Assembly: GCA_013166835.1 (NCBI GenBank)
Contig: JABLTI010000063.1
Span: 1-16,281 of the forward strand
Length of the DNA: 16,281 nucleotides
From: Promethearchaeati archaeon
GTDB taxonomy: Archaea; Asgardarchaeota; Heimdallarchaeia; JABLTI01
Reading direction: 5' to 3'
Positions 514 to 16,281 of the stretch are shown here, piece after piece. The position numbers and the translations under genes were made by a program. The notes beneath the pieces were generated by a model that had not been told where the DNA came from, did no database searches, and saw only the letters and a program-made list of their open reading frames with translations. Numbering within the stretch: the first letter of the stretch is position 1; each line of letters opens with the position of its first letter.

Positions 514-516
514 AAA

Positions 517-1470
517 TCATATTTTTTTTACTACTCTAGTTCCACTTTTATCATCTAAAGCAGCTATTGCATTTTCAGGTGAAGTAATAATTGAGAGTCT
601 CCCACCACATTCGATGAATTGTATTGCAGATTCTACTTTCGGTCCCATACTACCCTTTGCGAAATGACCATTATCAAACATTTTCTTTAATTTTGAAATT
701 TCGATTTTTTCTATTTTTTGCTGATTTTCTTTCCCATAATTAAGATATGCGTTTGAGACATCCGTTAAAAGCATCAAAATATCAGCATCAATTTGGGTTG
801 CTAATACTTCTGTGGCTCTATCTTTATCAATAACTGCATCAACATCAACATAAGTTCCATTCTCTTGAGCAACAGGAATTCCCCCTCCTCCTACTGCAAT
901 AACTATATCCCCTTCCTCTACACACCGTCTAATAGTAGACCCTTCAAGAATTTCTAAAGGAATAGGAGATGGAACAACTTTTCTAAAACCTCGACCTGCA
1001 TCATTTATGTAAGTGTCTTTAGTTTCCTTATGAAGCTTGATTGCTTCTTCTTCTGAATAAAATGGACCAATAGGTTTTGTTGGTTCCTTAAAAGCTGAAT
1101 CCTTGTGGTTAACAACTGCACGAGTAATAATAGCTACTACTCTTTTATCATGAATATCATGCTCGTATAATCGTTCTTCTAGAGCAGTTTGAATCATGAA
1201 ACCAATTTGTCCTTGTGACATAGCCCCACATATACTAAGAGGTTGTTCAGGTATCCCTTCGGTTACACCTGATTTTTGTTGAACAAGAATATTGCCAACT
1301 TGAGGACCATTTCCATGTGTAAGAATAACTCCAAAGCCTTTTTTAATTACGTTAATTATGACATCAGTCGCTTTTCTAAGATTTTCCATTTGCTGTTCGT
1401 AGGTCTTAGGTTGACCTTTTTGGAGGATCATATTTCCTCCTAGAGCAATGGCAATCAAATCCTTCGTCAT
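517..1470 (-). CDS. arcC: Carbamate kinase
   Basis: 317 aa with the amino-acid-kinase/carbamate kinase motifs IALGGN, THGNGPQVG, AMSQGQIG, PTKPIGPFY, RKVVPSP, GGGGIPV, AVIDKD, LTDV and GSMGPKV. Confidence 0.96.
   Translation of the reverse strand: MTKDLIAIALGGNMILQKGQPKTYEQQMENLRKATDVIINVIKKGFGVILTHGNGPQVGNILVQQKSGVTEGIPEQPLSICGAMSQGQIGFMIQTALEERLYEHDIHDKRVVAIITRAVVNHKDSAFKEPTKPIGPFYSEEEAIKLHKETKDTYINDAGRGFRKVVPSPIPLEILEGSTIRRCVEEGDIVIAVGGGGIPVAQENGTYVDVDAVIDKDRATEVLATQIDADILMLLTDVSNAYLNYGKENQQKIEKIEISKLKKMFDNGHFAKGSMGPKVESAIQFIECGGRLSIITSPENAIAALDDKSGTRVVKKI
522..529 (+). terminator. Candidate oligo-T (T8) terminator for the + strand hypothetical gene, lying inside the 3' end of arcC
   Basis: T8 tract 9 nt after the TAA at 513. 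The convergent genes are only 3 bp apart, and archaeal termination uses oligo-T tracts. Confidence 0.35.
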
Positions 1471-1498
1471 AATTTTTCAATCCTATATTCATTAAATT

Positions 1499-1523
1499 TA
1501 GATAGTAAAGAGGTTATTATCTA
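1499..1523. promoter_or_regulatory. Imperfect inverted repeat, candidate operator in the divergent arcC/HEAT intergenic region
   Basis: TAGATAGTAA-agagg-TTATTATCTA: 10-bp arms, 1 mismatch, 5-nt spacer, about 30-50 bp upstream of the arcC start. Confidence 0.35.
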
Positions 1524-1648
1524 CCATATTATCTTAAAAATCTTCTCAAAAAAAAGAAATAATATACATAAATATACTCTATTGTAGTAAAAATACTAAA
1601 CGCTAATATAGGAAATCAGCAAATATACTAATTACCGAGGGGTAGTCA

Positions 1649-2488
1649 ATGGCTGATGTTAATATATTAATGAAACAGTTAGCTAATACCAACGAAAAAG
1701 AGGCAAAATGTGCAACCATTACTAAATTGGGAAATTTGTGTGATGATGCAGCAGTAAAGATTCTAGTGAGACATCTTAATCAGGAAGAAGATAATGAGAT
1801 TAAGAGTTATGCAGCGAGTGCTTTGATTAATATTAGTAGTAAAAAAGCAACACAGATGTTAGTTCGTTTACTCAGAAGCGAATCATGGATTACTAGAATG
1901 AAAGCAGTTGAAACGCTTGGGGAACTCGAAGATAAGAAAGCAACCTTAACTCTAATTAGGGTACTTCGAAATGATTCTGAATCAAGTGTAAGGGAGTGGG
2001 CAGCGATTTCTCTAGGAAAAATTGGGGATAAAAAAGCAGTGAAACCATTAGTGAGTGCTTTAACTAAAGATTCACACTTTGAAGTTCGTATGGAAGCAGC
2101 AAAAGCTTTAGGAAAAATTAAAGACAAGAAAGCTAAGGGAGCATTAATTCAAGCATTCTATTCTGATGCTGAATATCAAGTTAGTTGGGCTTCAGCATCC
2201 GCACTAGCAAATTTAAATGATAGTGAATCCAAGAAACTTCTAAAGAAGTTGACTAAGGAACTTGTTAAAATTTTAGAAAGCGAAAAGGATGAAACAATTC
2301 TAAGTGCAGCTGCGAAAACTCTTGGAGAAATTGGGAATGAAATAGCAGCAAAAATAATGCTGAAGACAATGAAAATAAGTAAAGAATTAGTTAGACTGGA
2401 AATCAATTTAGCTCTAGGAAAAATGGCTAAACGTCTAAATTATAAAGATAGAGAGGAATTTATCGAATATATTAAGCTGAAAAGCTAA
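1649..2488 (+). CDS. HEAT-repeat (PBS-lyase-like) protein
   Basis: 279 aa made of tandem ~31-aa repeats (TRMKAVETLGEL, VREWAAISLGKIG, VRMEAAKALGKI, VSWASASALANL, LSAAAKTLGEIG, VRLEINLALGKM). A Shine-Dalgarno-like GAGGGG lies just upstream of the ATG. Confidence 0.92.
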   Translation: MADVNILMKQLANTNEKEAKCATITKLGNLCDDAAVKILVRHLNQEEDNEIKSYAASALINISSKKATQMLVRLLRSESWITRMKAVETLGELEDKKATLTLIRVLRNDSESSVREWAAISLGKIGDKKAVKPLVSALTKDSHFEVRMEAAKALGKIKDKKAKGALIQAFYSDAEYQVSWASASALANLNDSESKKLLKKLTKELVKILESEKDETILSAAAKTLGEIGNEIAAKIMLKTMKISKELVRLEINLALGKMAKRLNYKDREEFIEYIKLKS

Positions 2489-2527
2489 AAGAATAGATGA
2501 ATTTTAAAGAAAAGACGAAAAAAGAGG

Positions 2528-2553
2528 TTTTTTTGTTCTAACAGAGTCTTTTT
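2528..2553 (+). terminator. Candidate T-rich terminator after the HEAT-repeat gene
   Basis: T7 tract at 2528-2534 and a T5 tract at 2549-2553, downstream of the stop at 2488. Confidence 0.3.
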
Positions 2554-2593
2554 AACTAGAAACTGAGAAACAATGTAAAAGAGTTGACAGTTA

Positions 2594-3616
2594 ATGGAAA
2601 TATCGAAAGTTTATTTCTACGATAACGTCTCAAACTTGAAAGCAGGTGTAAACAGTTTTTTCAAAATGATTGTTGATGAATGCCAAACAGAAGAAGCTGT
2701 TGGTATCAAGATTCATTTTGGTGAAAAGGAAAATGATACACATGTGAGTGCAAAACATTTGAGTGATGTCACTAAATTCTTCAAGAAACCAGTTTTTGTC
2801 GAATGTAATGTTCTCTATCGTGGTAATCGATTAAGAAAAGAGGATCATATTAAACAAGCACATGATCACGGATTTGATTTCATAGAAATCGATATTCTTG
2901 ATGGTGAAATGGGAGAAGATTACATTGAAATTGAAATCGATACAAAAAACACACAGAAAGCAAAAATAGGGAGAGGAATTAAGAATTATGATAACTTGAT
3001 TTCAATATCTCATTTTAAAGGTCACATAGTCGCTGGTTTTGGTGGAGCTCTAAAGAATGTTGGTATGGGATTAGGATCACGCGGGGGAAAACTAGACATT
3101 CATGCTGGAGTATCTCCGCAAATAGATACTGTTAATTGCATAGCATGTGGCTCGTGTGCGGAACAATGCCCTGCAGACGCAATTACTGTAGATGATTATG
3201 CAGTTATAGATCAAGAGATATGCATTGGCTGTGCTCAATGTATTGCAGTTTGTCCAGAAGGAGTTATTAAAATTCCTTGGGGAAATAGACCAGCAAATGA
3301 ATTCTTGGAAAAAATGGCAGAATATGCCCTTGCCTGTGTTCAGAACAAGAATTGGTGGTACATTAATTTCTTAACAGATATTACGATGAAATGTGATTGT
3401 GTGGGGACAAGGCAACAACCATTTATGGAAGATATCGGTATTTTGTTTTCAAAAGATCCGATTGCAATTGATAAAGCATCTATGGATCTAGTTATAGAAC
3501 GAAATAACGGAGTGGATCCATTTAAATCTCACAACAAGAACAGCAACTATATTCTGAAATATGGAGAAGAAATTGGTCTGGGAAGTATTAAGTATGATTT
3601 AGAAATGGTTAAATAA
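2594..3616 (+). CDS. DUF362-family Fe-S protein with an inserted 2[4Fe-4S] ferredoxin domain
   Basis: DUF362-type motifs IKIHFGE, LYRGNR, SHFKGH..AGFGGALKNVGMG.GSRGGK, xCDC and DIGILFSKDPIAIDKAS. Two CxxCxxCxxxCP motifs (CIACGSCAEQCP, CIGCAQCIAVCP). Confidence 0.9.
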   Translation: MEISKVYFYDNVSNLKAGVNSFFKMIVDECQTEEAVGIKIHFGEKENDTHVSAKHLSDVTKFFKKPVFVECNVLYRGNRLRKEDHIKQAHDHGFDFIEIDILDGEMGEDYIEIEIDTKNTQKAKIGRGIKNYDNLISISHFKGHIVAGFGGALKNVGMGLGSRGGKLDIHAGVSPQIDTVNCIACGSCAEQCPADAITVDDYAVIDQEICIGCAQCIAVCPEGVIKIPWGNRPANEFLEKMAEYALACVQNKNWWYINFLTDITMKCDCVGTRQQPFMEDIGILFSKDPIAIDKASMDLVIERNNGVDPFKSHNKNSNYILKYGEEIGLGSIKYDLEMVK

Positions 3617-3652
3617 CCGAACTTTCTCTTTTTTTGTGTTTGTTGAATCATA

Positions 3653-4618
3653 ATGAGTAAACTTGAAACGACTGCAAATAATAATTCTATTCCAGATAGA
3701 AATGATCGAATGATTAAAGTTAGGAATATAACAATCATAGGTCTTGTAATTAACGTATTATTAGCTGTATTCAAGATAACAATAAGTATCCGATCAGGAA
3801 GTTTATCGTTACTTGCCGATGGTTTAGATTCAGCTTTAGATATAGCAACAGTAATTTTTGGTTTTGTAGCAATTAGAATTGCTGTTCGTCCTGCTGATAA
3901 AGACCATCATTTTGGTCATGCTAAATTTGAGAATTTCTTTTCATTAGGCGTTGCACTACTTTTAGTCGCTTCTTCAGGCATCATTGGTTATCAAGCAATA
4001 ACTAAATTAATCAACAAAACTTCATCTATTTACGATCCATATAATCTAATTATTGCAGCTATTAGCATAGTTCTCAAGGGAGTACTTGTTTGGCTAAATG
4101 TTAGTGTCGGTAAAAAGATAAAATCACCTATACTTGTGGCAAATGGCAAGAATTTTAGAACTGATATTCTTACATCTATTGTAGTACTTGTCTCTGTATC
4201 CATTGGTCACCGCTCTATTGGTTCATTCTCACTTTACTGGGTGGATCCAACAATTGCAATTATTATTAGTATTATAATTATAATTACTGCAATAGGTATC
4301 ACAAGGGATTCAGCTGGTGTTTTACTAGATGAAAGTCCAGATGAAGAAACTATGTTGAAAATAGAAAAATACACAAAAGAACAAACGGGTGTAAAAGAGA
4401 TTGGAAATATCAGAGCAAGAAGTGTTGGAGCTAATATATTTCTCGTAGATATAGATATTTACCTTGACCCTACATTAACAATTAGTGAAGGACACGATAT
4501 AGCATGTATAGTTGAAGATGCACTTAAAGAAAAATTACCTATAAAATATATACAAGTTCATGTTGAACCATATCACACACATGAAGAAGAAGAAAAAAAT
4601 GAACACGAGGAAAAATAA
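3653..4618 (+). CDS. Cation diffusion facilitator (FieF/YiiP/MntE-like divalent metal efflux transporter)
   Basis: CDF signature SLSLLADGLDSALD, the PADKDHHFGHAKFE loop, six hydrophobic segments, and a C-terminal dimerisation domain (LTISEGHDIA, QVHVEP) with a His/Glu-rich tail. Confidence 0.95.
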   Translation: MSKLETTANNNSIPDRNDRMIKVRNITIIGLVINVLLAVFKITISIRSGSLSLLADGLDSALDIATVIFGFVAIRIAVRPADKDHHFGHAKFENFFSLGVALLLVASSGIIGYQAITKLINKTSSIYDPYNLIIAAISIVLKGVLVWLNVSVGKKIKSPILVANGKNFRTDILTSIVVLVSVSIGHRSIGSFSLYWVDPTIAIIISIIIIITAIGITRDSAGVLLDESPDEETMLKIEKYTKEQTGVKEIGNIRARSVGANIFLVDIDIYLDPTLTISEGHDIACIVEDALKEKLPIKYIQVHVEPYHTHEEEEKNEHEEK

Positions 4619-4905
4619 TGAAGGAAGAAGCAGAGAAAACTGAGAAAGAAGCTTTTCAATTTACCACAAAGCATTTTACCATAATCATTCCTGTGGTTCT
4701 GATAATATCTATCGGTATTTTAGTAGCTGCAATTTATATGTTCATTAATCCAGGTCTTGTTAGTGGGATTGTTTTTGGAGCGGTTATGTTAGTACTCTTT
4801 ATTGCTCCCCTAACATTTGCTATCATATTCTATTATAAGAAGGTCAAAGTCCCAAGCCAAGAAATCACCGAGAAGAAAAAAATTGAAATCCAAAGAGTAA
4901 ATTAA
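4618..4905 (+). CDS. Small hypothetical membrane protein (2 TM helices)
   Basis: 95 aa with two long hydrophobic segments and charged termini. Its ATG overlaps the CDF stop codon (TAATG at 4616-4620), which suggests translational coupling. Confidence 0.8.
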   Translation: MKEEAEKTEKEAFQFTTKHFTIIIPVVLIISIGILVAAIYMFINPGLVSGIVFGAVMLVLFIAPLTFAIIFYYKKVKVPSQEITEKKKIEIQRVN

Positions 4906-4953
4906 ACGAAAAAATAGTTAAAGATGAAATCCAAGCAAGTTATGGTTTAATTG

Positions 4954-4961
4954 TTTATATT
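4954..4961 (+). promoter_or_regulatory. Candidate TATA box for the phosphatase-superfamily gene
   Basis: TTTATATT about 45 bp upstream of the TTG start. Weak, because the background is AT-rich. Confidence 0.3.
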
Positions 4962-5002
4962 AAAAAATTATCAACAATTGCTATCAATAGGAATGGTTTG
5001 AA

Positions 5003-6832
5003 TTGCAAAAAAGAAAAGTAAATCTCCTTTTAGTCTGGTTTGTTGTCATTATAACATTACAACTTTCATTTGGAATTAGGGCTCTAACAACTCAATTTGA
5101 TTTGAATAACAAACACAATATTGCTAGTGAGTTAGAAGTAGTACCACAGATTGGTACTCCTGCAGCAATTACCGATCAAGTATTGATATTTTTCGTAGAT
5201 GGAATGCGATATGATAAAATGCTTGAAGCAAACACTCCCAATATGGATTCTCTAATGGCTAATGGAACAACTTTTTCGAATTATCAGGTAATTTTACCAA
5301 GTTATAGTAGAGTAAATTATGCGGCCTTCTCTACAGGCTCAAGTACAAATATGACAAATGTTTTTGCAAATGGTTATGACGATGAATTAGAAATACCAAC
5401 TCTTTACAGCTTAATTACAGGTAATGATTTGAATAAGAGTCTTATAACAGATGAAGGTGGATGGGCGAAATTCTTAGGAAAAGATTCTGATGTTGTAGTA
5501 TATCCTGATACAGTATCACATTCATTTCAAGAAGGATTGGTAGTGAAAGAAGCAGCACTTGCTACTATTCCTGGTAATTTTTCTAATATACAATTTATTG
5601 GATTTGATGATGTTGATGCTGCCGGTCATGATTTTGGAGCTGCTTCAAGTACTTACATACAGATGATCGAAAATACTGATAGCTATATAGGAGAAATTCT
5701 CGATTTATACAATTCACTTGGACAACTAAATAATACAACGATTGTGCTTTTCAGTGATCATGGACATGAGGATATTGGAGGACATGGAGGTGAAACTTCT
5801 GCTCAAATACATGGATCTTTTATTTTTGCTGGAAAAGGAGTTTCAAATAAGGGTTTAATGTCTGATAAATTAACGAAAATTAATTCAATCACTCCTACAC
5901 TCTTAACGATGCTTGGTATTTCTTTAGCTCCAACAATGAACGGTCCTGTGCTTTTTGATTTCATTGATAGTACCATTCAGACTAAAGCAATTTATGCAAT
6001 TCAACAAGCTGAGATCATGAATCAGCAGCTTGAAGCAACAATAAATGAATTTGGAATTATGTCCAATAAAGCTAAATTACCGTATATTACTGGCGCAGAA
6101 TTAGTAACTGATAATATAACGTTAGCAAAAGGAAACTATTCAATCACACAGTACATTTCTTCATACAATTTAGCACAAGAAGCAGAAGAATCAGCAAGAC
6201 TTTACTTAAGCTTGTTATTGAAACAATTAAAATCTATATCAGAATTGTTGAGGACATTACTAATTATTGGTATTGTAACTCTCGTTTCAGCTACGATATT
6301 TTATCTAAATCGTCGCAGAATAATTGAAGTAGCTCATCAAGAGGTTTTTTCAAAAGACCAATTGATACCACAATTGCTTGGAATGCTTTCTGCAATTTCA
6401 ATTTGTATAATCATTTCAGCAATCTTTGGATTCAAATTTGCAGCAACAAGCTTCAATAGTACAAATCAAACAGTTCCACCAATATTAACATCATTTTTTG
6501 TATCTGGTGCTTTACTAGTTTTTCTCCCATGGTTAGCAATTTATCTTCTAAAAAGCAAATCTAGTGAATTTACAACTTTCAAAGAATGGAAAAAATTATT
6601 CATAAAATCATCAATAGGTTCAATGTTTTTCATCTCGTTACCGATATTTGGATATATCTTGTATTATATCGCACAATTCGGACCATGGCCAAGCTGGATT
6701 ATACCACCATTAGCTGATACATATGCGTTTTGGATAATCGGAATAATGCCTTGTATATTGTATATTATTCCTCTAATTTTAATGCTCATCTTATGGAGAA
6801 GTGGAAAAAAGGATAAAGCAGCTATAGGTTAA
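5003..6832 (+). CDS. Membrane-anchored alkaline-phosphatase-superfamily enzyme (NPP / GPI ethanolamine-phosphate-transferase-like)
   Basis: TTG start (an in-frame TAG lies at 4988-4990) and an N-terminal hydrophobic helix. Metal-binding and catalytic motifs are FFVDGMRYD, LPSYSRVNY (Ser nucleophile position), DVDAAGH and FSDHGHEDIGGHGG, followed by about 5 C-terminal TM helices. Confidence 0.88.
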   Translation: MQKRKVNLLLVWFVVIITLQLSFGIRALTTQFDLNNKHNIASELEVVPQIGTPAAITDQVLIFFVDGMRYDKMLEANTPNMDSLMANGTTFSNYQVILPSYSRVNYAAFSTGSSTNMTNVFANGYDDELEIPTLYSLITGNDLNKSLITDEGGWAKFLGKDSDVVVYPDTVSHSFQEGLVVKEAALATIPGNFSNIQFIGFDDVDAAGHDFGAASSTYIQMIENTDSYIGEILDLYNSLGQLNNTTIVLFSDHGHEDIGGHGGETSAQIHGSFIFAGKGVSNKGLMSDKLTKINSITPTLLTMLGISLAPTMNGPVLFDFIDSTIQTKAIYAIQQAEIMNQQLEATINEFGIMSNKAKLPYITGAELVTDNITLAKGNYSITQYISSYNLAQEAEESARLYLSLLLKQLKSISELLRTLLIIGIVTLVSATIFYLNRRRIIEVAHQEVFSKDQLIPQLLGMLSAISICIIISAIFGFKFAATSFNSTNQTVPPILTSFFVSGALLVFLPWLAIYLLKSKSSEFTTFKEWKKLFIKSSIGSMFFISLPIFGYILYYIAQFGPWPSWIIPPLADTYAFWIIGIMPCILYIIPLILMLILWRSGKKDKAAIG

Positions 6833-6927
6833 ATTTGTTCATTAGAACCATTTCTTCTATTTATTGAGCAAAATTCTTTTTTATTTTCTTTCTTAATATT
6901 CTATAATCTATTTCTGGAGGATATGAG

Positions 6928-7350
6928 ATGGAAGAAAAAACTCTGTCAACAGATGAAGCTATTCTTGAGGAATTAAAACAAATTCGTGAACATCTAGTAC
7001 CTAAAGAAGAAGAGATAGTAGAAGCACCAAAAAAACGATTACAACGAATTAGAAATTTCGGGGATGAATTCATTGTCTTCATTCGTAAATACAAAGTCTT
7101 AGGACTTGCAGTTGCATTTATCATTGCAACATATGTTGGACTATTAGTACAATCACTTGTTGATGATATAATTATGCCTATATTTCAATATATTCCCGGC
7201 CTCAAGGATTTAGATAGTTTGGAAAGCTGGCAAGCAGGTCCATTTTTCATTGGAAGTTTCATTTCTGCAATAATTACATTTACAATAATTTCAATTGTTA
7301 TGTTTATAATTGTTAAAGCTGGCAACAAAATAGGACTTGAATCTGATTAA
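6928..7350 (+). CDS. mscL: Large-conductance mechanosensitive channel
   Basis: S1 helix EFIVFIRK, TM1 VLGLAVAFII..LVQSLVDDIIMPI and TM2 GSFISAIITFTIISIVMFIIVK match the MscL pattern. A GGAGG Shine-Dalgarno lies at 6916-6920. Confidence 0.92.
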   Translation: MEEKTLSTDEAILEELKQIREHLVPKEEEIVEAPKKRLQRIRNFGDEFIVFIRKYKVLGLAVAFIIATYVGLLVQSLVDDIIMPIFQYIPGLKDLDSLESWQAGPFFIGSFISAIITFTIISIVMFIIVKAGNKIGLESD

Positions 7351-7364
7351 TGTGATTCCGCTGC

Positions 7365-7386
7365 TTTCCTTTCTTTTATTTTTTTT
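7365..7386 (+). terminator. T-rich terminator after mscL
   Basis: TTTCCTTTCTTTTATTTTTTTT directly downstream of the mscL stop, in the gap between convergent genes. Confidence 0.5.
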
Positions 7387-7424
7387 AGAGTTTCTTTAAC
7401 AGGTCAAAAATTTAAAGATCCTTC

Positions 7425-10400
7425 TTAGACAGAAAAATCAGAAATACATTCTAAGAACAGTTTTGACACTTTTTCTATTGAAGTGTACAAACCAACAATA
7501 TCATTACGATCACCACTACTAATTCCATTGAAAACTTCTTCTACAATCTTTGGAATAGCATTGATAACTGACTGGAAGATTTCTAAATCATCTTTTGAAT
7601 GAATAGCTGCATCCATACTTTTCAAAGCAGCTTTTGCATGTCTATCAGCTTGTTTGTAATCATAATCTATTAATGATGTAAGAGCTTTCTCTGTGAGAAT
7701 AATGGAATCGCCTATGAAAATCTTTGTTTGTTTAGAAATATGTTCTAATGAGGTTTCATCTAAACTTAATTTTTTATGGAGGGAAGTTATTAAAATTTCT
7801 TTTTCTGTTGCAGGATCATCCTTCATCTGTCTAGCTAATTTTGATCTTCTGCGAGGAGAAATAGCCTTTTGTGTTATTAATCCTTTTGAGATTTCAGTCA
7901 CACCAAAGTATTTCTTTACAAGATCTATTGATCCTTTGAATCTAGCCATATTTACATGGGTATCATCTGATATAGCGTCTCTATAAATAAATTCGAATTC
8001 AGTAGCAAAGAGCTTCAGTTTCTGTAAATGAGCGGGTTTGACTTTGTTTACTACTAATACTGTATCTCCATAACTACTTGTATAGATTAGCAGATGTTTT
8101 TTACCAAACTCAACAGTTTCTATATCAAATTTCGACTGTTTACCAATTATTTCTTCAAGTATTCCTCTGATACCACTCATTGCACCACCAAATAGCTGTT
8201 CATCTGTGGTCATTTGAGTTGAATAAGGAAGGTATAGAACTGTTAATCCAGATTTCAAAATATAGGAGATATTATGAATTTCATCATGCCAACCTCTATT
8301 CATAATTGGTTTTCTAAGTGAAACAACCATTACTATGGAAAGGATAAGGAATACTACTAAACCAACAACAACTGGCACCAGAGGAAAGTCTGATACAATT
8401 GGTTCAGAAACAAGAGTGAAGTAATAAGTATCAGAATTAGCATTACCAGCTAAATCAGTGTAAGTAAAATTAACTGTATAGGAGCCAAGAAGTAAAATAT
8501 CAAAACTCAAAACAATATCATATTGATAAATGGAACCATGCGAAACCACAGAATTGTATATCATTTCAAAAGTTTGATTATAACCTGGCCCAAGTAAATT
8601 GACTTCTACTTTGTTAATCCCATAAGTATCTATAATATGAACTGTTAGCGTGTGATTGTTTAAACCTGCTTCCTCATATTGTATTATATCCCTAGGAGCA
8701 GTATTAAAGACATTATAATCAATTCTGGGATCTTGGAAAAAGACTGGAAGCACTGTGTCAATAATTAAGAAATAGATTTCTCTGCTTTCTCTGCTGGCTT
8801 TATCCATAATGGATACAGTCAAATTATGATAGTCCATTCCAACGAGGAAGTCTTCATCTAAAGTATATATTATTCTCATAATAGGGATATAAACGTAATC
8901 CGTGCCAAAATCCTCTTCAAATACACTGTTTGTGTTATCAGCAATTACTGATATAGATTTGATACCTATACCTGGATTATTTATGGTTAAATCAAATTCT
9001 ATATTTCCACTATTTCGATATTCTAGATCATTAAGAGAGGTATAAAACTGGGGGGAAGTTAAAGAAACCAAGACAATTATTGTCACATTGCCTTTATTTC
9101 CAGCATTATCGTAACCATAAATAATCAATTCATAATACCCACTGAATCCAGTAATATTCAAGTTATTACTGAATGGAGGGGTTGTTTCTCTAATAATTCT
9201 AATACTGCCAAAATCAATTCTAAAGGATTCTAATCCAGAACCAACATCTTGACTGAACCATTCTACATGCACATTTGAATCAAGAATGACTGAATTATTG
9301 GTAGGATTAATCATCAAAACTTGAGGTGGAGATTGATCTACCGTTATCCAATGAATGTCTTCATAAATTTTCATATCGGTTGTTACAGCTCTAATTGTGA
9401 TGTTATAGATTGGATATTGATCTATTGGAATAACACCTAAATTAATAGTACATGTAAAGGTAGTATTTGAATAACTATTGTATAATGTGTTATTGACATA
9501 GACTTCGAAATGGTCAATATTTAAATTATTAACATCCCAGATAATATCGAAAGATGTAGAATTAATGTAGGTAAACATTTTGCTTGGATCAACTAAAATA
9601 ATAGTTGGAGCACTTGTATTTTGAATAACTGTAATTTCTTGATCTGTGTAATAACCTAGGTAATCAAAAGCTTGGATGGTTATAATTGCAGATTCATTTT
9701 CAGTGAGTGTGACAAAATAATTCGAGGTTTTTACATCGAAAATTGTGTCTAGTAAGGTTCCATTAACAAATATCTTGAATTGTTCAAGCCCTACTCCCAC
9801 ATCGAAGGATTCCCAAGAAACGATAATGTAAGCAAGACCAGTTGTATAATTATCAGGTGGATGATCAATAGTTAAATTTGGGGCTGATTGATCAAGAATT
9901 ATACTAAAAACATCAGTATGAGTATTTCCTGCTTTGTCAAATGCTGTTATTGCTACATCTTTGTTACTTTCATTGCCAAGATCAACAAGATCACTCATAA
10001 TTAAAGGAGAATAGGAATCATACAAAACACCATCAATTGTTAGTTGAGTTTGTTCTATGCCAGTACCTAATAGATTGTCTGTTGCATTCCAAGACAAAGC
10101 TATTGTCTGAGAATTTGTGTAATAGGTTCCATCTCCTAGTTGTGGCAGAATTATTGGATCAAAAGAGACATCCGGATTCACAGTATCTCGAGTAATTGTT
10201 ATGGAATTAGATGCAAAATTACCTAAGACATCATATGTTACTACCTCAATCAAATAATCCTTGTCAGTGTTTAGATCTATATTGAAAGTACTAGCAGAGC
10301 TAGTGCCTTGAGAAACACTATCAATAAAAATTTCCGAATAGTCAATTGAAGAATGAACATCAGAAGCGTCCCAATAGATATCTAAATTTGACACTTTGAC

Positions 10401-12923
10401 AGCAACTCCATCAAGTGGAGAAGTGATAGAAACAATGGGGGGAGTTGTATCTTTAATCACAATTATTGAGGACCTTCCTTCTAAGAGAGTATCATCAACT
10501 GCTATAACTGTAATATTCCAAGTTCCATCACTTGGCAGGGGAATGTTATAGGTTTCTAAAATTGTAGATGGAGTTATTTCTGTCTCATTTCGATATATTT
10601 TGTAATAATCAAAATCACCATCAGGATCGGAGTTATTATAACTTATATCCACAGAACCACTTGTAGTTAGAAAATTATTTGGGGGACTAATAATGGTAAC
10701 TTGTGGAGCTTTCACATCAAATTTCACAGTAATACTATCAGTCGCACTTTTTCCAGAATAGCTGTAGGTTATTAATTGAATGGCATTGTTTCCAGCAAAT
10801 AGAAATACATCAGATGAAGTGATACTTCCTCCAACTCGATTTTGAAAGACTCCTTTAACATAAATATCAGTGTGATGTACTGAAACAAATTCAGAAATTA
10901 GATCCCATGTTACGGTGACACTTTCTTGAGAAGAGACATATCCTGAACTTGGACTAGTTATTGATATTCTAGGAGCATCACCTTTACCTAGAACAAGAAT
11001 CTGACCCAGGGTATCTCCAAGGATAATCTCATTTTCACCATCATGATCTATATCGAAAACTACTATTGAATTCCTTTTGCCAAAAGAGGTACCAAAATCA
11101 CCTGACCAATTCAAGTGAAAATCAAATGAAGAACCACTATCAGTGACACAACCAACATAAACAGTACCATTATTTGCACTGAAAATCAGCTCATTTCGAC
11201 CATCTTGATTTATATCCGCTATGGTAGCTCCTCCACCCATTGATGGTTGAGATGTTTGATCATTTATGAGTAATTCTAATGCAGGAGCAGGATCGGAAAA
11301 TGAATTGTAACCATTAAAAATTTTCAAGTAATTCTTACCTACAATGATAATATCATTAATTGAATCACCATCAATGTCGTCTACTATGATTGTATGACCG
11401 AAATTGTCCTCAGTAATTGATGTCGAACCAATAGGAAGATCATCCTCTGGATTATCTTGATATTTGGGAATTGTTCGTAAATAAATACGTAAATTAGTTA
11501 ATGAAATAGAATTATCAGCAGAAATTTGAGCGGAAAAAAGTAGTTCTTTATCATAATCAGTATCCATATTAGCAACTAGTATACTGTGAATTCTAGTTGC
11601 GCCTATTGGGCTGAATGGTGATCGAAAGTCATGGTCAAAACTATCACCTACTGAATCATATTCTAAGACAATAATACCACCATTTTGATCACCAGCCACT
11701 AAATCAGTATAAGTATCATTATCAGCATCACCAATTTCAAGATAGCCCATAAATGCAGAAGTATGAGTAAAAACAGTTTCAGACACCCCGAAATCATTGG
11801 AAGTCGTATTCCATTCACTGAGCCGCAAGATAGTATTTGAAGAGCCTAACATATATAATTCATCTTTTCCATCGCCGGTAAAATCATGTGCAGCGATACC
11901 AGACATTACAGTTGTTAATAAAGATTGATGGCTAGTTTCCCAGCTAGCCCAGATTCTTTGATAATCACCTGAACGATAATCAAAAATTGCGACTAAATAA
12001 TTATCACCGAGAACAGTTCTATTTGAGCTTACTATTAATTCAAGGTCACTGTTACCATCAATATCTGCAGTAGTTAGGAATGTACCATTACCATACCCAG
12101 TAGCTGTCGATTTGATATTGAAATTTTCTTCAACAACATAATCAAAAGATGTTTGTGTACTAATGCCTAGCTCAATGTCTCCCCATGAGAAAGCATTCGA
12201 TCGTATCTCATCTTGATTACCACTAATATAAGGCCAAATAATTCCAGCATTACTGCTACCATAATTATCCGTTGCTTCAAACCCAATACCGAGTACTTTT
12301 CCAGAAGAACTTGAAATAGCAGTAAATGGTATCTTAAATTCATATTGCCTATGAGTATTTGTTGAATCGAAATCTGAAGGATTAAAGGAAGTTGAAAGCA
12401 AAATTCCGCTACTTGCTAGAGGAATATCTAATGAACCAGATTCAATGGCGATCCAAGCAGATAGTGATATGCTATATGAAAGAAACTCTACAAACTGACC
12501 GGAAGAATTTGAGGTAAATCTAACCATTCTATCAATTGAACTTAGTTGACCATTATGATCACTGTCAAAGAAAATTGAACTACCCCAAGCTGGTACTGGA
12601 GTTTCTACTTGTAAGTTTAAAACGTCCAATCCAATATAAAAATAAACATCATTATTTTGTAGGAATAATTTCCCTCCAATTTGATCTGTTGAATTGTAAA
12701 GATTGTAAATTGATGCGGAGGTCCATTCTTGATCCATATCATCATGAACGAAATTTATTTGCCCATTAATATTTGGCGCTGTGTTATTCCAAATTGAGAA
12801 AATCTCTGTAGGATAAGCAATAGCAGAATGTCCTGAAGTAGGGAGATTTGTAATAAGGAATGGACTTAGAACAAATATTAAAGATAGAATCAAATATAGA
12901 GCGATATTTCTGTAACATTTCAT
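7425..12923 (-). CDS. Giant type I membrane protein: signal peptide, DOMON/CBM9-like domain, 7x FG-GAP/VCBS beta-propeller, ~9 Ig-like repeats, TM helix, cytoplasmic longin-like domain, helical C-terminus
   Basis: Uninterrupted 1832-aa ORF with an N-terminal hydrophobic signal. DOMON/CBM9-like pattern APNINGQI..EW..LFLQNNDVYFYIGLDV..FFDSDHNG..YEFKIPF (~12165-12790), seven DxDxDG-type loops, repeated (A/P)PxxxIxxP..AxDxxGN units, TM VPVVVGLVVFLILSIVMVVSL followed by RK (~8315-8387), and an intracellular ILKSGL..DEQLFGGAMSGIRGILEEI..LKLFATEFEFIY segment. Confidence 0.93.
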   Translation of the reverse strand: MKCYRNIALYLILSLIFVLSPFLITNLPTSGHSAIAYPTEIFSIWNNTAPNINGQINFVHDDMDQEWTSASIYNLYNSTDQIGGKLFLQNNDVYFYIGLDVLNLQVETPVPAWGSSIFFDSDHNGQLSSIDRMVRFTSNSSGQFVEFLSYSISLSAWIAIESGSLDIPLASSGILLSTSFNPSDFDSTNTHRQYEFKIPFTAISSSSGKVLGIGFEATDNYGSSNAGIIWPYISGNQDEIRSNAFSWGDIELGISTQTSFDYVVEENFNIKSTATGYGNGTFLTTADIDGNSDLELIVSSNRTVLGDNYLVAIFDYRSGDYQRIWASWETSHQSLLTTVMSGIAAHDFTGDGKDELYMLGSSNTILRLSEWNTTSNDFGVSETVFTHTSAFMGYLEIGDADNDTYTDLVAGDQNGGIIVLEYDSVGDSFDHDFRSPFSPIGATRIHSILVANMDTDYDKELLFSAQISADNSISLTNLRIYLRTIPKYQDNPEDDLPIGSTSITEDNFGHTIIVDDIDGDSINDIIIVGKNYLKIFNGYNSFSDPAPALELLINDQTSQPSMGGGATIADINQDGRNELIFSANNGTVYVGCVTDSGSSFDFHLNWSGDFGTSFGKRNSIVVFDIDHDGENEIILGDTLGQILVLGKGDAPRISITSPSSGYVSSQESVTVTWDLISEFVSVHHTDIYVKGVFQNRVGGSITSSDVFLFAGNNAIQLITYSYSGKSATDSITVKFDVKAPQVTIISPPNNFLTTSGSVDISYNNSDPDGDFDYYKIYRNETEITPSTILETYNIPLPSDGTWNITVIAVDDTLLEGRSSIIVIKDTTPPIVSITSPLDGVAVKVSNLDIYWDASDVHSSIDYSEIFIDSVSQGTSSASTFNIDLNTDKDYLIEVVTYDVLGNFASNSITITRDTVNPDVSFDPIILPQLGDGTYYTNSQTIALSWNATDNLLGTGIEQTQLTIDGVLYDSYSPLIMSDLVDLGNESNKDVAITAFDKAGNTHTDVFSIILDQSAPNLTIDHPPDNYTTGLAYIIVSWESFDVGVGLEQFKIFVNGTLLDTIFDVKTSNYFVTLTENESAIITIQAFDYLGYYTDQEITVIQNTSAPTIILVDPSKMFTYINSTSFDIIWDVNNLNIDHFEVYVNNTLYNSYSNTTFTCTINLGVIPIDQYPIYNITIRAVTTDMKIYEDIHWITVDQSPPQVLMINPTNNSVILDSNVHVEWFSQDVGSGLESFRIDFGSIRIIRETTPPFSNNLNITGFSGYYELIIYGYDNAGNKGNVTIIVLVSLTSPQFYTSLNDLEYRNSGNIEFDLTINNPGIGIKSISVIADNTNSVFEEDFGTDYVYIPIMRIIYTLDEDFLVGMDYHNLTVSIMDKASRESREIYFLIIDTVLPVFFQDPRIDYNVFNTAPRDIIQYEEAGLNNHTLTVHIIDTYGINKVEVNLLGPGYNQTFEMIYNSVVSHGSIYQYDIVLSFDILLLGSYTVNFTYTDLAGNANSDTYYFTLVSEPIVSDFPLVPVVVGLVVFLILSIVMVVSLRKPIMNRGWHDEIHNISYILKSGLTVLYLPYSTQMTTDEQLFGGAMSGIRGILEEIIGKQSKFDIETVEFGKKHLLIYTSSYGDTVLVVNKVKPAHLQKLKLFATEFEFIYRDAISDDTHVNMARFKGSIDLVKKYFGVTEISKGLITQKAISPRRRSKLARQMKDDPATEKEILITSLHKKLSLDETSLEHISKQTKIFIGDSIILTEKALTSLIDYDYKQADRHAKAALKSMDAAIHSKDDLEIFQSVINAIPKIVEEVFNGISSGDRNDIVGLYTSIEKVSKLFLECISDFSV
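8410..10979 (-). repeat. About nine tandem Ig-like (bacterial Ig/Big-type) protein repeats of ~90-115 aa
   Basis: Repeat starts APRISITSP, APQVTIISP, PPIVSITSP, NPDVSFDP, APNLTIDHP, APTIILVDP, PPQVLMINP, SPQFYTSL and LPVFFQDP. Ends include TYDVLGN, AFDKAGN, AFDYLGY, GYDNAGN and YTDLAGN. The repeats are diverged at DNA level. Confidence 0.8.
11017..12069 (-). repeat. Seven FG-GAP/VCBS-type Ca-binding repeats (7-bladed beta-propeller)
   Basis: DIDGNSDLE, DFTGDGKDE, DADNDTYTD, NMDTDYDKE, DIDGDSIND, DINQDGRNE and DIDHDGENE, spaced about 52-64 aa apart and each followed by a hydrophobic strand. Confidence 0.88.
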
Positions 12924-12944
12924 TAGTTAAATTCCCTTTATTCC

Positions 12945-12980
12945 AGTAATATTATCTTAATTTGCTTCGACAATATTACT
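12945..12980 (-). promoter_or_regulatory. 12-bp inverted repeat/hairpin just upstream of the giant surface-protein gene
   Basis: The + strand reads AGTAATATTATC-N12-GACAATATTACT. The single mismatch becomes a G:U pair in the - strand transcript. Confidence 0.5.
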
Positions 12981-13033
12981 AATTCTGCTTTCTAGGTATA
13001 TATCAAGTGTGCTTTAAAAAATAAAATTTTAAC

Positions 13034-13042
13034 AAAAAAAAA
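13034..13042 (-). terminator. Oligo-T (T9) terminator of guaA
   Basis: A9 on the + strand (T9 on the - strand) about 30 nt after the guaA stop, followed by further T tracts. Confidence 0.5.
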
Positions 13043-13070
13043 GGCTAGCTAATTAAAAATAATCTTTAAA

Positions 13071-14636
13071 TCACTCCCATTCGATAGTTGCAGGCGGTTT
13101 GGAAGTAATATCATATACTACTCGATTTACTTTTTTGACTTCATTGATTATACGATTGGAAATTACTGCTAAAGTTTCATAAGGAATTTTTGACCAATCA
13201 GCGGTCATAGCATCAATGGAATCAACTGAACGCAAAACTACAGTCCACTCATATGTTCGGGAATCGCCCATAACACCCACAGATTTTACGGGGAGAAGAA
13301 CAGAAAAACTTTGCCAGTAATTATTGTATTCATCTCTTTTTTTAATTTCTCCAATGAAAATCGCATCGACTTCTTTAAGAGTATCTAATCGCTCTTGTGT
13401 TACTTCACCTAGAATACGAACCGATAATCCTGGACCAGGAAAAGGATGTCTTTCTATCAACTCAGAGGGAATTTTTAGTAATCTACCAACTTCTCTAACT
13501 TCATCTTTATAGAGCTCTTTTAGTGGTTCAACAACTTTCAAGGACATTTTTTCAGGTAATGCTACATTATGATGACTCTTAATTTTTGCAGCTGTTTCTG
13601 ATGGCTGTGCAGATTCTATTCTATCAGGATAAATGGTTCCTTGAGCTAAATAGCCAAATGTCCCGTGCTTCTTTGTCAGTTTCTTTTCAAACGCTTCAAA
13701 TGCCTCAATGAATTTGAAAGCAATTATTTTCCTTTTTTCTTCAGGATCCTTGACACCTTTAAGAGCTTTCAAGAAGGTTTGTTGAGCGTCCAATCGATAG
13801 AAATTTGCAAATTTTAAATCTTCCTTGAAATACTTCACCACTTGTTCAGGTTCATCTTTTCGCATGAATCCATGATCAACAAAGACACAATAGAGACGAT
13901 CACCAATGCTTTGGTGAAGAAGGATTGCTGCCACAGTGGAATCTACTCCACCGCTTACACCTATAATAACTCGATTCTCCCCTACTTCATCTCTTATCTC
14001 TTTAATTTGCTGTTCGATATAACTTTCCATAGACCAATTCTTCTTAAGATTAGAAATTGTTAAAATGAAATTACTCAAGAGTATCATGCCATTATCAGTA
14101 TGAACAACTTCTGGATGAAATTGTAACCCAAAGATTTTTCTCTCAAGGTTCTCGAAGGCAGCAATTTCGCAATTATCACTGGATGCAGTTATCTCAAAAT
14201 CGGATGGTAATTTAGATATCTTGTCCCCATGGGACATCCACACTTTGTTTTCTTTTCCAAAGCTTTTGAACAAATTCTGATCATTTTTAATCTGAATCAT
14301 TGTATGCCCATATTCTTTCTGGTCTCCTTGGATAACTTTGCCACCATAATATTGAGAGATGAATTGATGACCATAACACAATCCTAAAACAGGAATTTTT
14401 TGTTTCTCAATAAATTCCATGGTTTCATCTGAGATTTTTGGAGCCTTCTTATCATAGACGCTATTTGGTCCACCCGAAAAAATAATTGATTTAACATTGT
14501 TCGAAAGTAATTCATCTGGTTTTACTCTCCAAGAGAAAATCTCAGAATGAACACCTAACTCCCTTACTCTCCTAGCAATTAAATGAGCATATTGTCCTCC
14601 AAAATCTATAACTGCAACTATATTCTTTTGTGACAT
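13071..14636 (-). CDS. guaA: GMP synthase (glutamine-hydrolysing), fused GATase + ATP-pyrophosphatase form
   Basis: DFGGQYAHLIARRVRE, GLCYGHQ (catalytic Cys), QFHPEV, PP-loop SGGVDS, QGTIYPD, IKSHHNV, PFPGPGL and terminal YDITSKPPATIEWE. The ATG at 14636 is preferred over the track's TTG at 14663 because the family homology begins there. Confidence 0.97.
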   Translation of the reverse strand: MSQKNIVAVIDFGGQYAHLIARRVRELGVHSEIFSWRVKPDELLSNNVKSIIFSGGPNSVYDKKAPKISDETMEFIEKQKIPVLGLCYGHQFISQYYGGKVIQGDQKEYGHTMIQIKNDQNLFKSFGKENKVWMSHGDKISKLPSDFEITASSDNCEIAAFENLERKIFGLQFHPEVVHTDNGMILLSNFILTISNLKKNWSMESYIEQQIKEIRDEVGENRVIIGVSGGVDSTVAAILLHQSIGDRLYCVFVDHGFMRKDEPEQVVKYFKEDLKFANFYRLDAQQTFLKALKGVKDPEEKRKIIAFKFIEAFEAFEKKLTKKHGTFGYLAQGTIYPDRIESAQPSETAAKIKSHHNVALPEKMSLKVVEPLKELYKDEVREVGRLLKIPSELIERHPFPGPGLSVRILGEVTQERLDTLKEVDAIFIGEIKKRDEYNNYWQSFSVLLPVKSVGVMGDSRTYEWTVVLRSVDSIDAMTADWSKIPYETLAVISNRIINEVKKVNRVVYDITSKPPATIEWE

Positions 14637-14685
14637 AGTTAATGCTACCATGCTAAAACCCAATATAGCTTTTTTAATTGTTCAG

Positions 14686-14694
14686 TTTATATAA
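14686..14694 (-). promoter_or_regulatory. Candidate TATA box for guaA
   Basis: TTATATAAA on the - strand, about 50 bp upstream of the likely ATG at 14636. Confidence 0.45.
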
Positions 14695-14740
14695 TTATGT
14701 TAATTTTTTAACAACTAAAATCCTGCAAATAACAAATTAT

Positions 14741-16281
14741 TTAGCGTTTTTTTGGAAAGGTTATCACGAAAATTGTCCCTAAACCCTCTTCACTTTCAAA
14801 ACCCATAGACCCACCATGTGCTTCCACAATTTTAAGAGCAATTAACAAACCAAATGAAGCGTAACTTTCCTTCGTCCAAGCTTTCCGAACTTCTTTTTGC
14901 CGATCTATAGACATCCCTCTTCCATTATCTTGGATTTCAATTTGTTTTTTATGTGGGAAATCTTTCCCAACAATATGCACTTTAGAAGCATCAGCATGTT
15001 TGATGACATTGATTAACAAATTTTCAAACACTTGTTTCAATTTTACTCTATCCCCCTTTAAAGTAGGCAAATCACGAATGCTTACCTTAAGATTAGGATC
15101 CAAGGATTTTATTTCTGAAACCAGTTCATTCGTTAATTCCGTCAGATTTACTGAAGTGATTTCACCCAATATTTCTCCCTCTTTGGCTAGAAATAAAAGG
15201 TCTTCAAGGAAATTTGTTGTTTCAACTATTTGTTGATCCACTTTGTCTGCGAAATCTGAATTACTCATGGAATTATACATGGAGATAATTTGTAATTTCC
15301 CTCGAATATCATGAGCAATTGTTGTGGCAAATTCCTCTAACTCATCTCTTTGTTTTTTCAGCATTTTTTGATTTTGATTGAGTACTTCCTGTGTTTTCAA
15401 TCGTTTAGTAATGTCTTGAATAACACCAAGGAAGGCAGTTGGTTTCCCATCTGCATCAGTTAAAAGTGTAGCATTCAACTCTCCAATATATTTTGAACCA
15501 TCTTTTCTTAACATTCTATACTGCATGTTTTTCATTCGACCAGTTTTCAAGGTTTTTTCAAGATTTTTAGCAGCTAACTTTTGATCCTCTTGAGCTATTA
15601 AATCAAAGGCACTTTTCCCAATCAATTCTTCTTCTATCTCTCCCCCATACAAATCTAGTGATTCTTGATTAATCATTAGGATTTTTCCGGTTAGATCTGT
15701 GACTAAAATCGAAAGAGGAGATGTTTCAACTAACTTTCTGTATCTTTCTTCACTAAATCGAAGTAATTCTTCTGCATTCTTGCGTTCCAAAATCGTTGCG
15801 AAAAATCGAACGATTGTTTCAAAGAAAATCCATTTTTCACTTGGAATGTATTTAGGAGTTTTAGATGCTAAATGAACTATCCCCAAAAGCTTGTTGTCAG
15901 CACTAACTATTGGCCAAGTAATTATGGATTGAATGTTCAATTCTTTTAATCGATTTTTATAGGGAAGTAGTTCTTTACTCTTGTTTACATCAGCAGAAAT
16001 TATAGCTATCCTGCTGTTTGCTACAAGAACTGAAATATGTTTATCATCTTCTAAGTGTTGATCTTCTACTAGCATATTTTTTTCTTTTGTAGTTCCATAA
16101 AAAGCTGTCAGTTTGAGAATTTTTGTTAAGGGATTATATAATCGAATAGTGCCTATATCAAAACCTAAAGTTGTAACTAAATCCCGTAAAACATCATTAC
16201 ACAAGTTTGTCATTTGCGATTTGCCGATTGCAGATTCAGCTATTAATTGGAATGCTTTTCGTTCTAGATTTATTGTGTTCT
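14741..16281 (-). CDS. GAF-PAS sensor histidine kinase, 5'-truncated by the window edge
   Basis: The frame stays open from 16213 to the right edge (NTINLERKAFQLIAESAIGKSQ then MTNL). GAF (IQSIITWPIVSADNKLLGIVHLAS), PAS/PAC (SEERYRKLVETSP..RKDGS..GVIQDITKR), H-box AHDIRG, N-box QVFENLLINVIKHA, G1 QDNGRGM and the terminal IVEAHGG..GTIFVITFP. Confidence 0.93.
   Translation of the reverse strand, partial: NTINLERKAFQLIAESAIGKSQMTNLCNDVLRDLVTTLGFDIGTIRLYNPLTKILKLTAFYGTTKEKNMLVEDQHLEDDKHISVLVANSRIAIISADVNKSKELLPYKNRLKELNIQSIITWPIVSADNKLLGIVHLASKTPKYIPSEKWIFFETIVRFFATILERKNAEELLRFSEERYRKLVETSPLSILVTDLTGKILMINQESLDLYGGEIEEELIGKSAFDLIAQEDQKLAAKNLEKTLKTGRMKNMQYRMLRKDGSKYIGELNATLLTDADGKPTAFLGVIQDITKRLKTQEVLNQNQKMLKKQRDELEEFATTIAHDIRGKLQIISMYNSMSNSDFADKVDQQIVETTNFLEDLLFLAKEGEILGEITSVNLTELTNELVSEIKSLDPNLKVSIRDLPTLKGDRVKLKQVFENLLINVIKHADASKVHIVGKDFPHKKQIEIQDNGRGMSIDRQKEVRKAWTKESYASFGLLIALKIVEAHGGSMGFESEEGLGTIFVITFPKKR

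Follow-up and report, generated by a model that had tools for sequence, protein, structure and literature searches.

A predicted longin-type domain directly behind the transmembrane helix of an Asgard archaeal surface protein

Longin domains are described as five-stranded beta-meanders of about 100 to 120 amino acids (aa) whose elements follow the order beta-beta-alpha-beta-beta-beta-alpha-alpha (PMC3747258), and Roadblock/LC7 domains are presented as their circular permutants, with a helix ahead of strand 1 (PMC10933270, PMC3747258). Both belong to the trafficking-related eukaryotic signature proteins (ESPs) of Asgard archaea, whose genomes are reported to carry many Roadblock and longin families shuffled into lineage-specific architectures (10.1101/2020.10.19.343400; PMC10936438; PMC10933270), with 130 ESP families among the Asgard clusters of orthologous genes (asCOGs) assigned to the Roadblock/LC7 superfamily (10.1101/2020.10.19.343400; PMC10936438). 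The reported Asgard fusions include a longin joined to a GTPase, an NPRL2-like longin joined to two-component domains, and a Vps28 C-terminal domain joined to a longin (PMC10936438 for the last). Here we describe a gene on a 16,281-nucleotide stretch (positions 1 to 16,281) of contig JABLTI010000063.1 of a Promethearchaeati archaeon (assembly GCA_013166835.1; the whole stretch is called the window below) that encodes a receptor-type surface protein of 1832 aa (7425..12923, minus strand) and in which a longin-type domain is very probably placed directly behind the transmembrane helix. Asgard longins and their fusions are already known, and what appears to be new is the membrane-anchored setting in a surface protein. 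We did not find a longin behind the transmembrane helix of an Asgard surface protein described in the papers searched, the supplementary asCOG and architecture tables lying outside that search, and the module may already have an asCOG of its own.

Each of the closest described systems resembles this protein in part. Longin SNAREs (Ykt6, Sec22, VAMP7) also combine a longin and a membrane anchor in one polypeptide, in the order N-terminal longin, SNARE motif and C-terminal anchor and with no ectodomain, whereas the order here is ectodomain, transmembrane helix and longin, the protein ends in a four-helix bundle, and its tail matched no SNARE family in Pfam. Repeats of the FG-GAP/VCBS propeller type, Ig-like domains, one transmembrane helix and a cytoplasmic tail are shared with integrin alpha subunits and with FG-GAP/VCBS surface proteins of prokaryotes. 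The integrin alpha subunit has a short, unstructured tail with a membrane-proximal motif of the GFFKR type and works with a beta subunit, whereas the tail here is 288 aa long with two folded domains, its juxtamembrane sequence is RKPIMNRGW, and the short-tail GFFKR-type feature is absent; Pfam detected no integrin beta-like gene in the window, and the protein is not known to have a beta-like partner. VCBS and integrin propellers are placed in one supercluster in PMC8023676, and PMC9258230, citing Liu et al. 2021, speaks of "integrin repeat-containing ESPs". FG-GAP/VCBS repeats are common in prokaryotes and therefore alone are no sign of integrin homology.

The fold itself has its nearest likeness in the TRAPP subunit Bet5/TRAPPC1 (3cue_C, 2j3t_C, 7ea3_D), which shows the same order of elements and was aligned over nearly its whole chain. 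Bet5 is described as a small soluble subunit that is paired with Trs23 and flanked by Bet3-type subunits in a Rab guanine nucleotide exchange factor (GEF) (PMC10933270, PMC3747258), whereas the domain here is covalently attached to the transmembrane helix of an 1832-aa protein, its similarity to Bet5 lies below curated thresholds, and no Bet3/TRAPPC3-like partner was seen near the receptor gene. Roadblock/LC7 proteins (MglB, LAMTOR2/3 of Ragulator and the Asgard roadblock 7yh1) share the alpha/beta core, at Foldseek template-modelling (TM) scores of 0.55-0.66, and are described as dimeric platforms with the GTPase on the single-helix face (PMC3747258). They differ in having an N-terminal helix that is absent here, and a second C-terminal helix is present in the domain described here. 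Ragulator also works at a membrane, where it is reported to be held by a separate extended protein, LAMTOR1 (PMC10933270), whereas the domain described here has a transmembrane helix of its own.

The receptor-type gene is the longest open reading frame (ORF) in the window, as defined by the ORF list, the translation and Pfam, and a word-indexed search returned full-length homologues of its product at 100% and 85-87% identity. The protein has a type I layout, with a signal-like segment, a large ectodomain, one transmembrane helix and the 288-aa cytoplasmic tail. The helix, LVPVVVGLVVFLILSIVMVVSL (aa 1515-1536; 8316..8381, on the minus strand like every feature of this gene), is hydrophobic at the same position in homologues and is followed by a basic juxtamembrane linker, RKPIMNRGW (aa 1537-1545; 8289..8315), which ends with the N-x-G/N-W motif of the family. 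N-x-S/T sequons number 30 per 1475 aa in the long outer region versus 1 in the 288-aa tail, and this skew, together with the basic residues past the helix, fits an outside-to-inside type I topology. The longin-type alpha/beta/alpha domain begins 13 residues past the helix (aa 1549-1674; 7902..8279) and was delimited with AlphaFold2, Foldseek and profile searches against the PDB and its own hidden Markov model (HMM), which scored 185 bits.

AlphaFold2 was run on the 288-aa tail with a 48-row alignment (A1) and gave a mean predicted local distance difference test (pLDDT) of 83.6, with values of 80 to 98 in ten-residue blocks of the longin-type domain. Residue labels below follow the numbering of the tail, in which W1 is the juxtamembrane W. 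The predicted order was beta1-beta2-alpha1-beta3-beta4-beta5-alpha2-alpha3, with strands and first helix at E5-12, E17-22, H31-49, E57-62, E65-71 and E75-81 and with helical segments after strand 5 at H86-102, H104-108, H115-118 and H121-129, the last two forming one element, H115-129. Between W1 and strand 1, only three residues were assigned to helix. The model thus has no roadblock-type helix ahead of strand 1 and has two helices after strand 5, so that its topology is that of a longin rather than a roadblock domain. Near-full-length alignments to longins also suggest that alpha2 and alpha3 share one face of the sheet, with alpha1 on the other.

Foldseek searches of the PDB returned at least 500 matches at E<=10 and 2 at E<=0.001, and 39 matches were listed. 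By our reading of the PDB entry descriptions, 19 of these 39 are chains of longin-bearing complexes (COPI delta/zeta, AP sigma/mu, TRAPP Bet5-type and Ykt6), 17 are MglB, LAMTOR or Roadblock chains, and the other 3 are axonemal entries. The longin matches had E values of about 1e-3 to 1e-2 and TM scores (target) of 0.18-0.67, the low end being made up of long AP mu and loosely fitted COPI delta chains; TRAPP Bet5-type 3cue_C was aligned over 142 columns of its 143-residue chain at a TM score of 0.67, and Ykt6 (3bw6) over 135 columns at 0.60. The domain is more than a chance finding: 41 cluster representatives share it (see below), and all of the 39 listed matches except the 3 axonemal ones are of longin or roadblock type.

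The same search bears on the possibility that this is a Roadblock/LC7/MglB-type domain, a prokaryote-wide permutant with nothing specifically "eukaryote-like" about it. MglB, LAMTOR and Roadblock chains equaled the longins in E value and TM score (5y3a_G, 0.66; 3kye_A, 0.62; the Asgard roadblock 7yh1_A, 0.58), and one of the nearest clusters in the ESM Atlas is automatically named Roadblock/LAMTOR2. Among the 39 listed matches, however, the roadblock alignments span 95-110 columns, with the exception of 3t12_C at 134, corresponding to the shared core, whereas those of longins mostly span 121-165; the model has no helix between the transmembrane segment and strand 1 and two helices past strand 5; and the weak sequence signals described below go to the longins of Bet5, Fuz, Intu and Sybindin. 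We regard the roadblock reading as quite improbable. A PAS/GAF-like cytoplasmic sensor that reads an intracellular small-molecule ligand is highly improbable: longins are counted in a wider PAS/GAF-like superfold (PMC4917890), and PAS_GdpP appeared below threshold in 2 of 24 family members (best E, 0.0017), but no PAS or GAF domain was present among the 39 listed Foldseek matches, conservation is concentrated on alpha1 and in turns formed by glycines with no pocket-like pattern, and no cofactor motif was seen.

At the sequence level, we used a profile alignment (A2) of the window's domain and 23 domain pieces of stored homologues (24 members). Yeast TRAPP Bet5 accounted for the two best matches of this profile in the PDB, both weak (E = 0.004 and 0.009), and was aligned over profile positions 18-114 and 23-114, with the L and G that open alpha1 matched. 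When the members were searched singly against Pfam, longin families appeared below threshold, namely, Fuz_longin_1 in 2 of 24 (best E, 0.0018), Intu_longin_1 in 2 of 24 (0.0021) and Sybindin in 1 of 24 (0.026), and the 18 Pfam families listed for these members included no roadblock family. For the ESM Atlas, an 87%-identical homologue served as the query (P0003, residues 1545-1680), and the nearest named clusters, an Asgard "clathrin adaptor small chain" cluster at 0.84 and a "Roadblock/LAMTOR2" cluster at 0.83 with Fuz_longin_1 on 22% of its members, are leads only, as scores of <0.9 are. The 288-aa tail taken whole matched no Pfam family at E<=0.01, its single match to E<=10 being a chance-level one to NBAS_11th (0.057), and in phmmer searches of PDB sequences, the tail matched nothing beyond cytochrome P460 at chance level (E>1), and the whole 1832-aa protein had no match. 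Each of the sequence signals is weak, and all point in the same direction as the structure search.

An earlier note on this DNA, made from the sequence alone, had proposed a longin-like domain at 7900-8290, directly after the transmembrane helix and with the beta-beta-alpha-beta-beta-beta-alpha-alpha order, and these proposals held. The peptide that it quoted begins with IHNISYILKSG at aa 1549 (8279) and closes with YFG at aa 1674 (7902), the hydrophobic stretch at aa 1515-1536 leads through RKPIMNRGW into strand 1, the order is the one that AlphaFold2 gave on 48 rows, and in the Foldseek comparison, the best matches were longins and their roadblock permutants, with Bet5 added weakly by the profile. 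The note had also singled out an SG turn and an LxxG.xSxI helix, which it associated with Asgard longin-like domains, and as features of the present family these proved correct in part: G15 and L33 are invariant, and G36 (98% of rows) and I41 (87%) are well kept, but S is not among the positions at which one residue reaches 85%.

The module is rare, with 41 representatives at E<=1e-3 among 1.84 billion cluster representatives in an exhaustive HMMER scan, and the word-indexed search with the tail gave 22 long homologues. A membrane anchor precedes the domain in 29 of the 30 members examined, the predicted helix ending at most 10 residues ahead of the domain in 27 of them, within 20 in one more and within 40 in another, and the single member with no transmembrane helix at the threshold used has a hydrophobic N terminus. 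The juxtamembrane N-x-G/N-W motif was seen throughout the 30 homologues, and W1 is 100% conserved in A1. The most conserved element of the family is helix alpha1, EQLFGGAMSGIRGILEEII (aa 1575-1593; 8145..8201), with a mean column entropy of 0.90 bit over the 48 rows, the domain's other elements having values of 1.15-2.6; L33, G35, G36, A37, L45, E47 and G50, the last in the loop just past alpha1, are each retained in 91% or more of the rows. The outer parts vary and are mostly FG-GAP/Ig ectodomains, with multi-pass anchors in the Sigynarchaeota-labeled members. A constant inner module beneath variable outer parts is the pattern that would be expected of a family of receptors or adhesins sharing one cytoplasmic function. 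The module defines a family for which there is no Pfam or NCBIfam model and whose named members are nearly all Asgard.

Locus L008 holds two convergent, tail-to-tail genes (L008:4525-10044, plus strand, and L008:10472-14521, minus strand), both with the transmembrane-plus-longin module and scoring 147.0 and 147.6 bits against the A2 HMM. The product of L008:10472-14521 has Big_7/fn3 matches and no FG-GAP match in its outer part and extends about 78 residues past the domain. Loci L007 and L008 come from one Heimdallarchaeota metagenome-assembled genome (MAG), which therefore carries at least three paralogues.

The host is, judging from the relationships of its sequences, an Asgard archaeon of the Heimdallarchaeota type, and nothing points to Bacteria. 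Of the 22 tail homologues, 9 are named, 6 as Heimdallarchaeota, 2 as "Asgard group" and 1 as Bathyarchaeia, and 6 of 10 more distant clusters are named, all 6 with an Asgard label (Heimdallarchaeota, Asgard group or Sigynarchaeota); one of these clusters also holds a Zixibacteria-labeled record beside a Heimdallarchaeota-labeled member. A genome scan with a seven-row alignment gave eight loci, seven titled Heimdallarchaeota and one Bathyarchaeia, and locus L001 is collinear with the window at 83-6820 (89.5% identity) and at 7425-8767 (84.4%). The window also carries guaA (13071-14663, minus strand), which encodes a 530-aa fusion of GATase and ATP-pyrophosphatase (NCBIfam PRK00074, 736 bits), and the placement of the contig through GuaA, which the earlier note had proposed as a check, gave the same answer. 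The closest named relatives of GuaA, at 68-81% identity, are labeled Heimdallarchaeota (three), Asgard group (four), Thorarchaeota (one) and Bathyarchaeia (one), and among the relatives listed beyond these, identity is <=59% and the labels are mostly Woesearchaeota and Nanoarchaeota. The assignment thus rests on the named homologues, the syntenic contig and GuaA and not on the fold, which the note had called the main clue to taxonomy: the Asgard host was borne out, but the longin/roadblock superfold is tabulated as occurring in archaea, bacteria and eukaryotes alike (PMC4917890, Table 1; PMC3747258), so that the fold is a hint to the taxon and not the main evidence for it. Among the receptor and GuaA homologues, the records labeled Bathyarchaeia (P0022/L004 and P0081) and Zixibacteria (P0031) sit amid Asgard sequences, P0031 in the same 90% cluster as the Heimdallarchaeota-labeled P0064, and these labels are probably binning or labeling errors in the source records.

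The overall best explanation, to which we assign a probability of roughly 0.55, is that a membrane-anchored longin-type domain serves as a docking platform in a surface protein of a Heimdallarchaeota-type Asgard archaeon. What the analysis shows is the fold, its place in the protein, its conservation, the range of the family and the host. The domain would be held close against the membrane's inner face as a membrane-fixed platform, docking through its alpha1 face, and would draw a cytoplasmic partner to the site of ectodomain engagement, thereby linking events at the surface to events inside the cell. The most likely partners would be one of the many small GTPases of Asgard archaea or, to complete a dimer, a soluble protein of the longin/roadblock kind. 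In longin/roadblock dimers, as described in PMC3747258, the interface is formed by beta3 and alpha1, with the GTPase on the single-helix face, and the strong conservation of alpha1 is an indirect sign of such a role. The note's reading of the domain as the receptor's signaling output, which may pair with soluble longin/roadblock proteins or act on a small GTPase, is likewise putative and draws on the roles of such domains elsewhere. That the domain works in this way, as a platform for a GTPase or for another longin/roadblock protein, is a tentative proposal made by analogy, which we hold at a little under even odds; dimerization, the partner and any scaffolding or GEF-like or GTPase-activating-protein (GAP)-like activity would likewise follow the precedent of known longins. 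A two-copy complex prediction of the longin domain with A2 gave scores of 0.23 and 0.27, the mark being 0.42, which counts neither for nor against binding.

Several observations weigh against a docking platform built on a longin fold. The window's own longin-type domain matched no Pfam family at E<=10, the whole 1832-aa protein matched no NCBIfam family at E<=1e-4, and no curated longin model (Pfam Longin, Sybindin, Clat_adaptor_s or Fuz_longin_1) reached its gathering cutoff in the family; because no curated cutoff was reached, we classify the domain by its longin-type fold and assign it to no named longin family. The Foldseek matches have E values of about 1e-3, TM scores of 0.5-0.67 and identities of 10-18%, with the roadblock permutants scoring level with the longins, and the placing of alpha2 and alpha3 on one face comes from the alignments and not from model coordinates. 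A profile search of proteins of 69-238 aa for soluble relatives gave three, none of them named, with no tie to a named soluble longin family; one of these three small relatives, P0058, has a hydrophobic N terminus. None of the window's ORFs matched a GTPase or roadblock family in Pfam, and in a scan of 49 flanking ORFs from seven related loci (L002-L008), no GTPase, longin or roadblock gene recurred. Finally, some longin domains, such as those of SNAREs and coat subunits, are described as not acting on GTPases (PMC3747258).

These last points are also what the main rival draws on, in which the tail is a clustering, anchoring or sorting module that works without a GTPase, by self-pairing, by pairing with the tails of paralogues or by a tie to cytoskeleton or sorting machinery, and in which the conserved face of alpha1 would serve for homotypic contacts or for binding a helix. 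SNARE and coat-subunit longins bind helices or cargo in their non-GTPase roles (PMC3747258), several paralogues occur per genome (the convergent pair in L008, and L007 with L008 in one MAG), no GTPase neighbor is conserved in L002-L008, the tail's own four-helix bundle on its flexible linker could be the helix donor, and Asgard cells are reported to show many complex surface proteins in place of an S-layer (PMC9834061). Against it, most longin- or roadblock-containing complexes also hold a GTPase, according to PMC3747258, and Asgard genomes are rich in small GTPases whose genes generally do not lie in operons with their regulators (PMC10933270). For the cultured Asgard archaeon MK-D1, the same source reports that small GTPase genes do not share operons with genes for roadblock, longin or TRAPPC3 proteins (PMC10933270), and the missing synteny therefore weighs little. 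We consider this rival unlikely on balance; it nevertheless stands ahead of the roadblock and PAS/GAF readings, which are less likely. Among the seven loci, L002 alone carries an Arf-family small GTPase gene (L002:787-1317; Pfam Arf, 1e-37), 4 kb upstream of the receptor gene.

The docking platform touches on the question of how Asgard small GTPases reach membranes and what they answer to. A longin fused to the inner end of an adhesion-type protein would tie the cell surface to the GTPase toolkit in a concrete and testable way. The most far-reaching version, an archaeal outside-in signaling or adhesion system that hard-wires an integrin-like ectodomain to a membrane-fixed longin platform for recruiting and switching small GTPases at the cell surface, is distinctly doubtful. 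In a review table, prenyltransferases, CAAX domains and GDI-type accessory factors are entered as not found for Lokiarchaeum (PMC4917890, Table 1); if the same is true of this lineage, a longin anchored by a transmembrane helix would, in this version, offer a direct means of gathering GTPases at one defined membrane patch and would be a possible forerunner of eukaryotic receptor-to-GTPase coupling. Even as a mere clustering or anchoring device, the module would still define a family with no Pfam or NCBIfam model. The 288-aa tail is small and confidently predicted and is suited to expression, structure determination and partner screens.

Behind the longin-type domain, a charged, poorly conserved linker (aa 1683-1717; 7773..7877; tail residues 139-173), modeled at a pLDDT of <50 and with the highest entropy of the tail (2.92), leads to four long helices at tail residues 179-286 in the AlphaFold2 model of the tail. 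The last 119 residues modeled alone formed an up-and-down four-helix bundle (aa 1723-1830; 7434..7757) with a pLDDT of 90.7 and a predicted TM score (pTM) of 0.83, and the bundle belongs to no recognized family: Foldseek found no PDB match at E<=0.001, only generic bundles, eight orthologous bundles gave scattered and inconsistent Pfam matches, and the ESM Atlas, queried through P0003, gave no lead. The C-terminal domain of Vps28 is also a four-helix bundle. That domain occurs with a longin in the Asgard fusions mentioned above, but the idea that the bundle is a Vps28 C-terminal domain was dropped for want of support, with no Vps28 among the listed Foldseek matches, inconsistent Pfam matches and a blank in the Atlas. 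Talin rod domains, which appeared at E values of ~0.25 in the Foldseek search of the bundle, were treated as generic helical-bundle noise.

At the other end of the protein, a signal-peptide-like hydrophobic segment, MKCYRNIALYLILSLIFVLSPFLITNL... (aa 1 to ~34; 12822..12923), recognized by eye from the translation, precedes the ectodomain (8382..12821), in which Pfam identified FG-GAP/VCBS repeats and Ig-like domains. The best Pfam stretches of the putative propeller repeats lie at aa 516-590 (11154-11378), FG-GAP_3 matching at an E value of 3.2e-11 over four stretches and FG-GAP at 5.7e-06. They are followed by a Glucodextran_B-like Ig-like domain (aa 651-736; 10716-10973; E = 2.9e-06) and by a Big_7 Ig-like domain (aa 829-888; 10260-10439; E = 1.6e-15).

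The neighbors of the receptor gene in the window, as identified with Pfam and NCBIfam, encode a carbamate kinase, a HEAT-repeat protein, a DUF362 ferredoxin-type protein, a CDF transporter, a phosphodiesterase/sulfatase-like protein, MscL, GuaA and a GAF-PAS histidine kinase. Small genes of the HEAT/PBS-lyase repeat type adjoin the receptor gene in four of the seven related loci (L002:4685-4978, L003:388-828, L006:1814-2200 and L007:10956-11252), and the window's own HEAT-repeat gene (1649-2488) lies 5 kb from it. A DAGK-catalytic/YegS-like lipid kinase gene stands directly beside the receptor gene in two loci (L002:10914-11855 and L008:3418-4323) and is absent from the window; neither the HEAT-repeat nor the DAGK-like type recurs in all seven loci. 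No tRNA or Rfam matches were found in the window. Its first ORF (1-513, plus strand), open at the 5' end, has no family match, and the 95-aa ORF at 4618-4905 (plus strand), which starts at the base that ends the CDF transporter ORF, has only a weak DUF1761 match. The GAF-PAS-HATPase histidine kinase gene (14741-16279, minus strand) runs off the end of the window. The mscL-like gene (6928-7350) encodes about 45 residues ahead of its Pfam match, and in the otherwise collinear locus L001, about 80 bp stand in place of the segment that contains it (6821-7424, about 600 bp), so that the two close relatives differ here by an indel.

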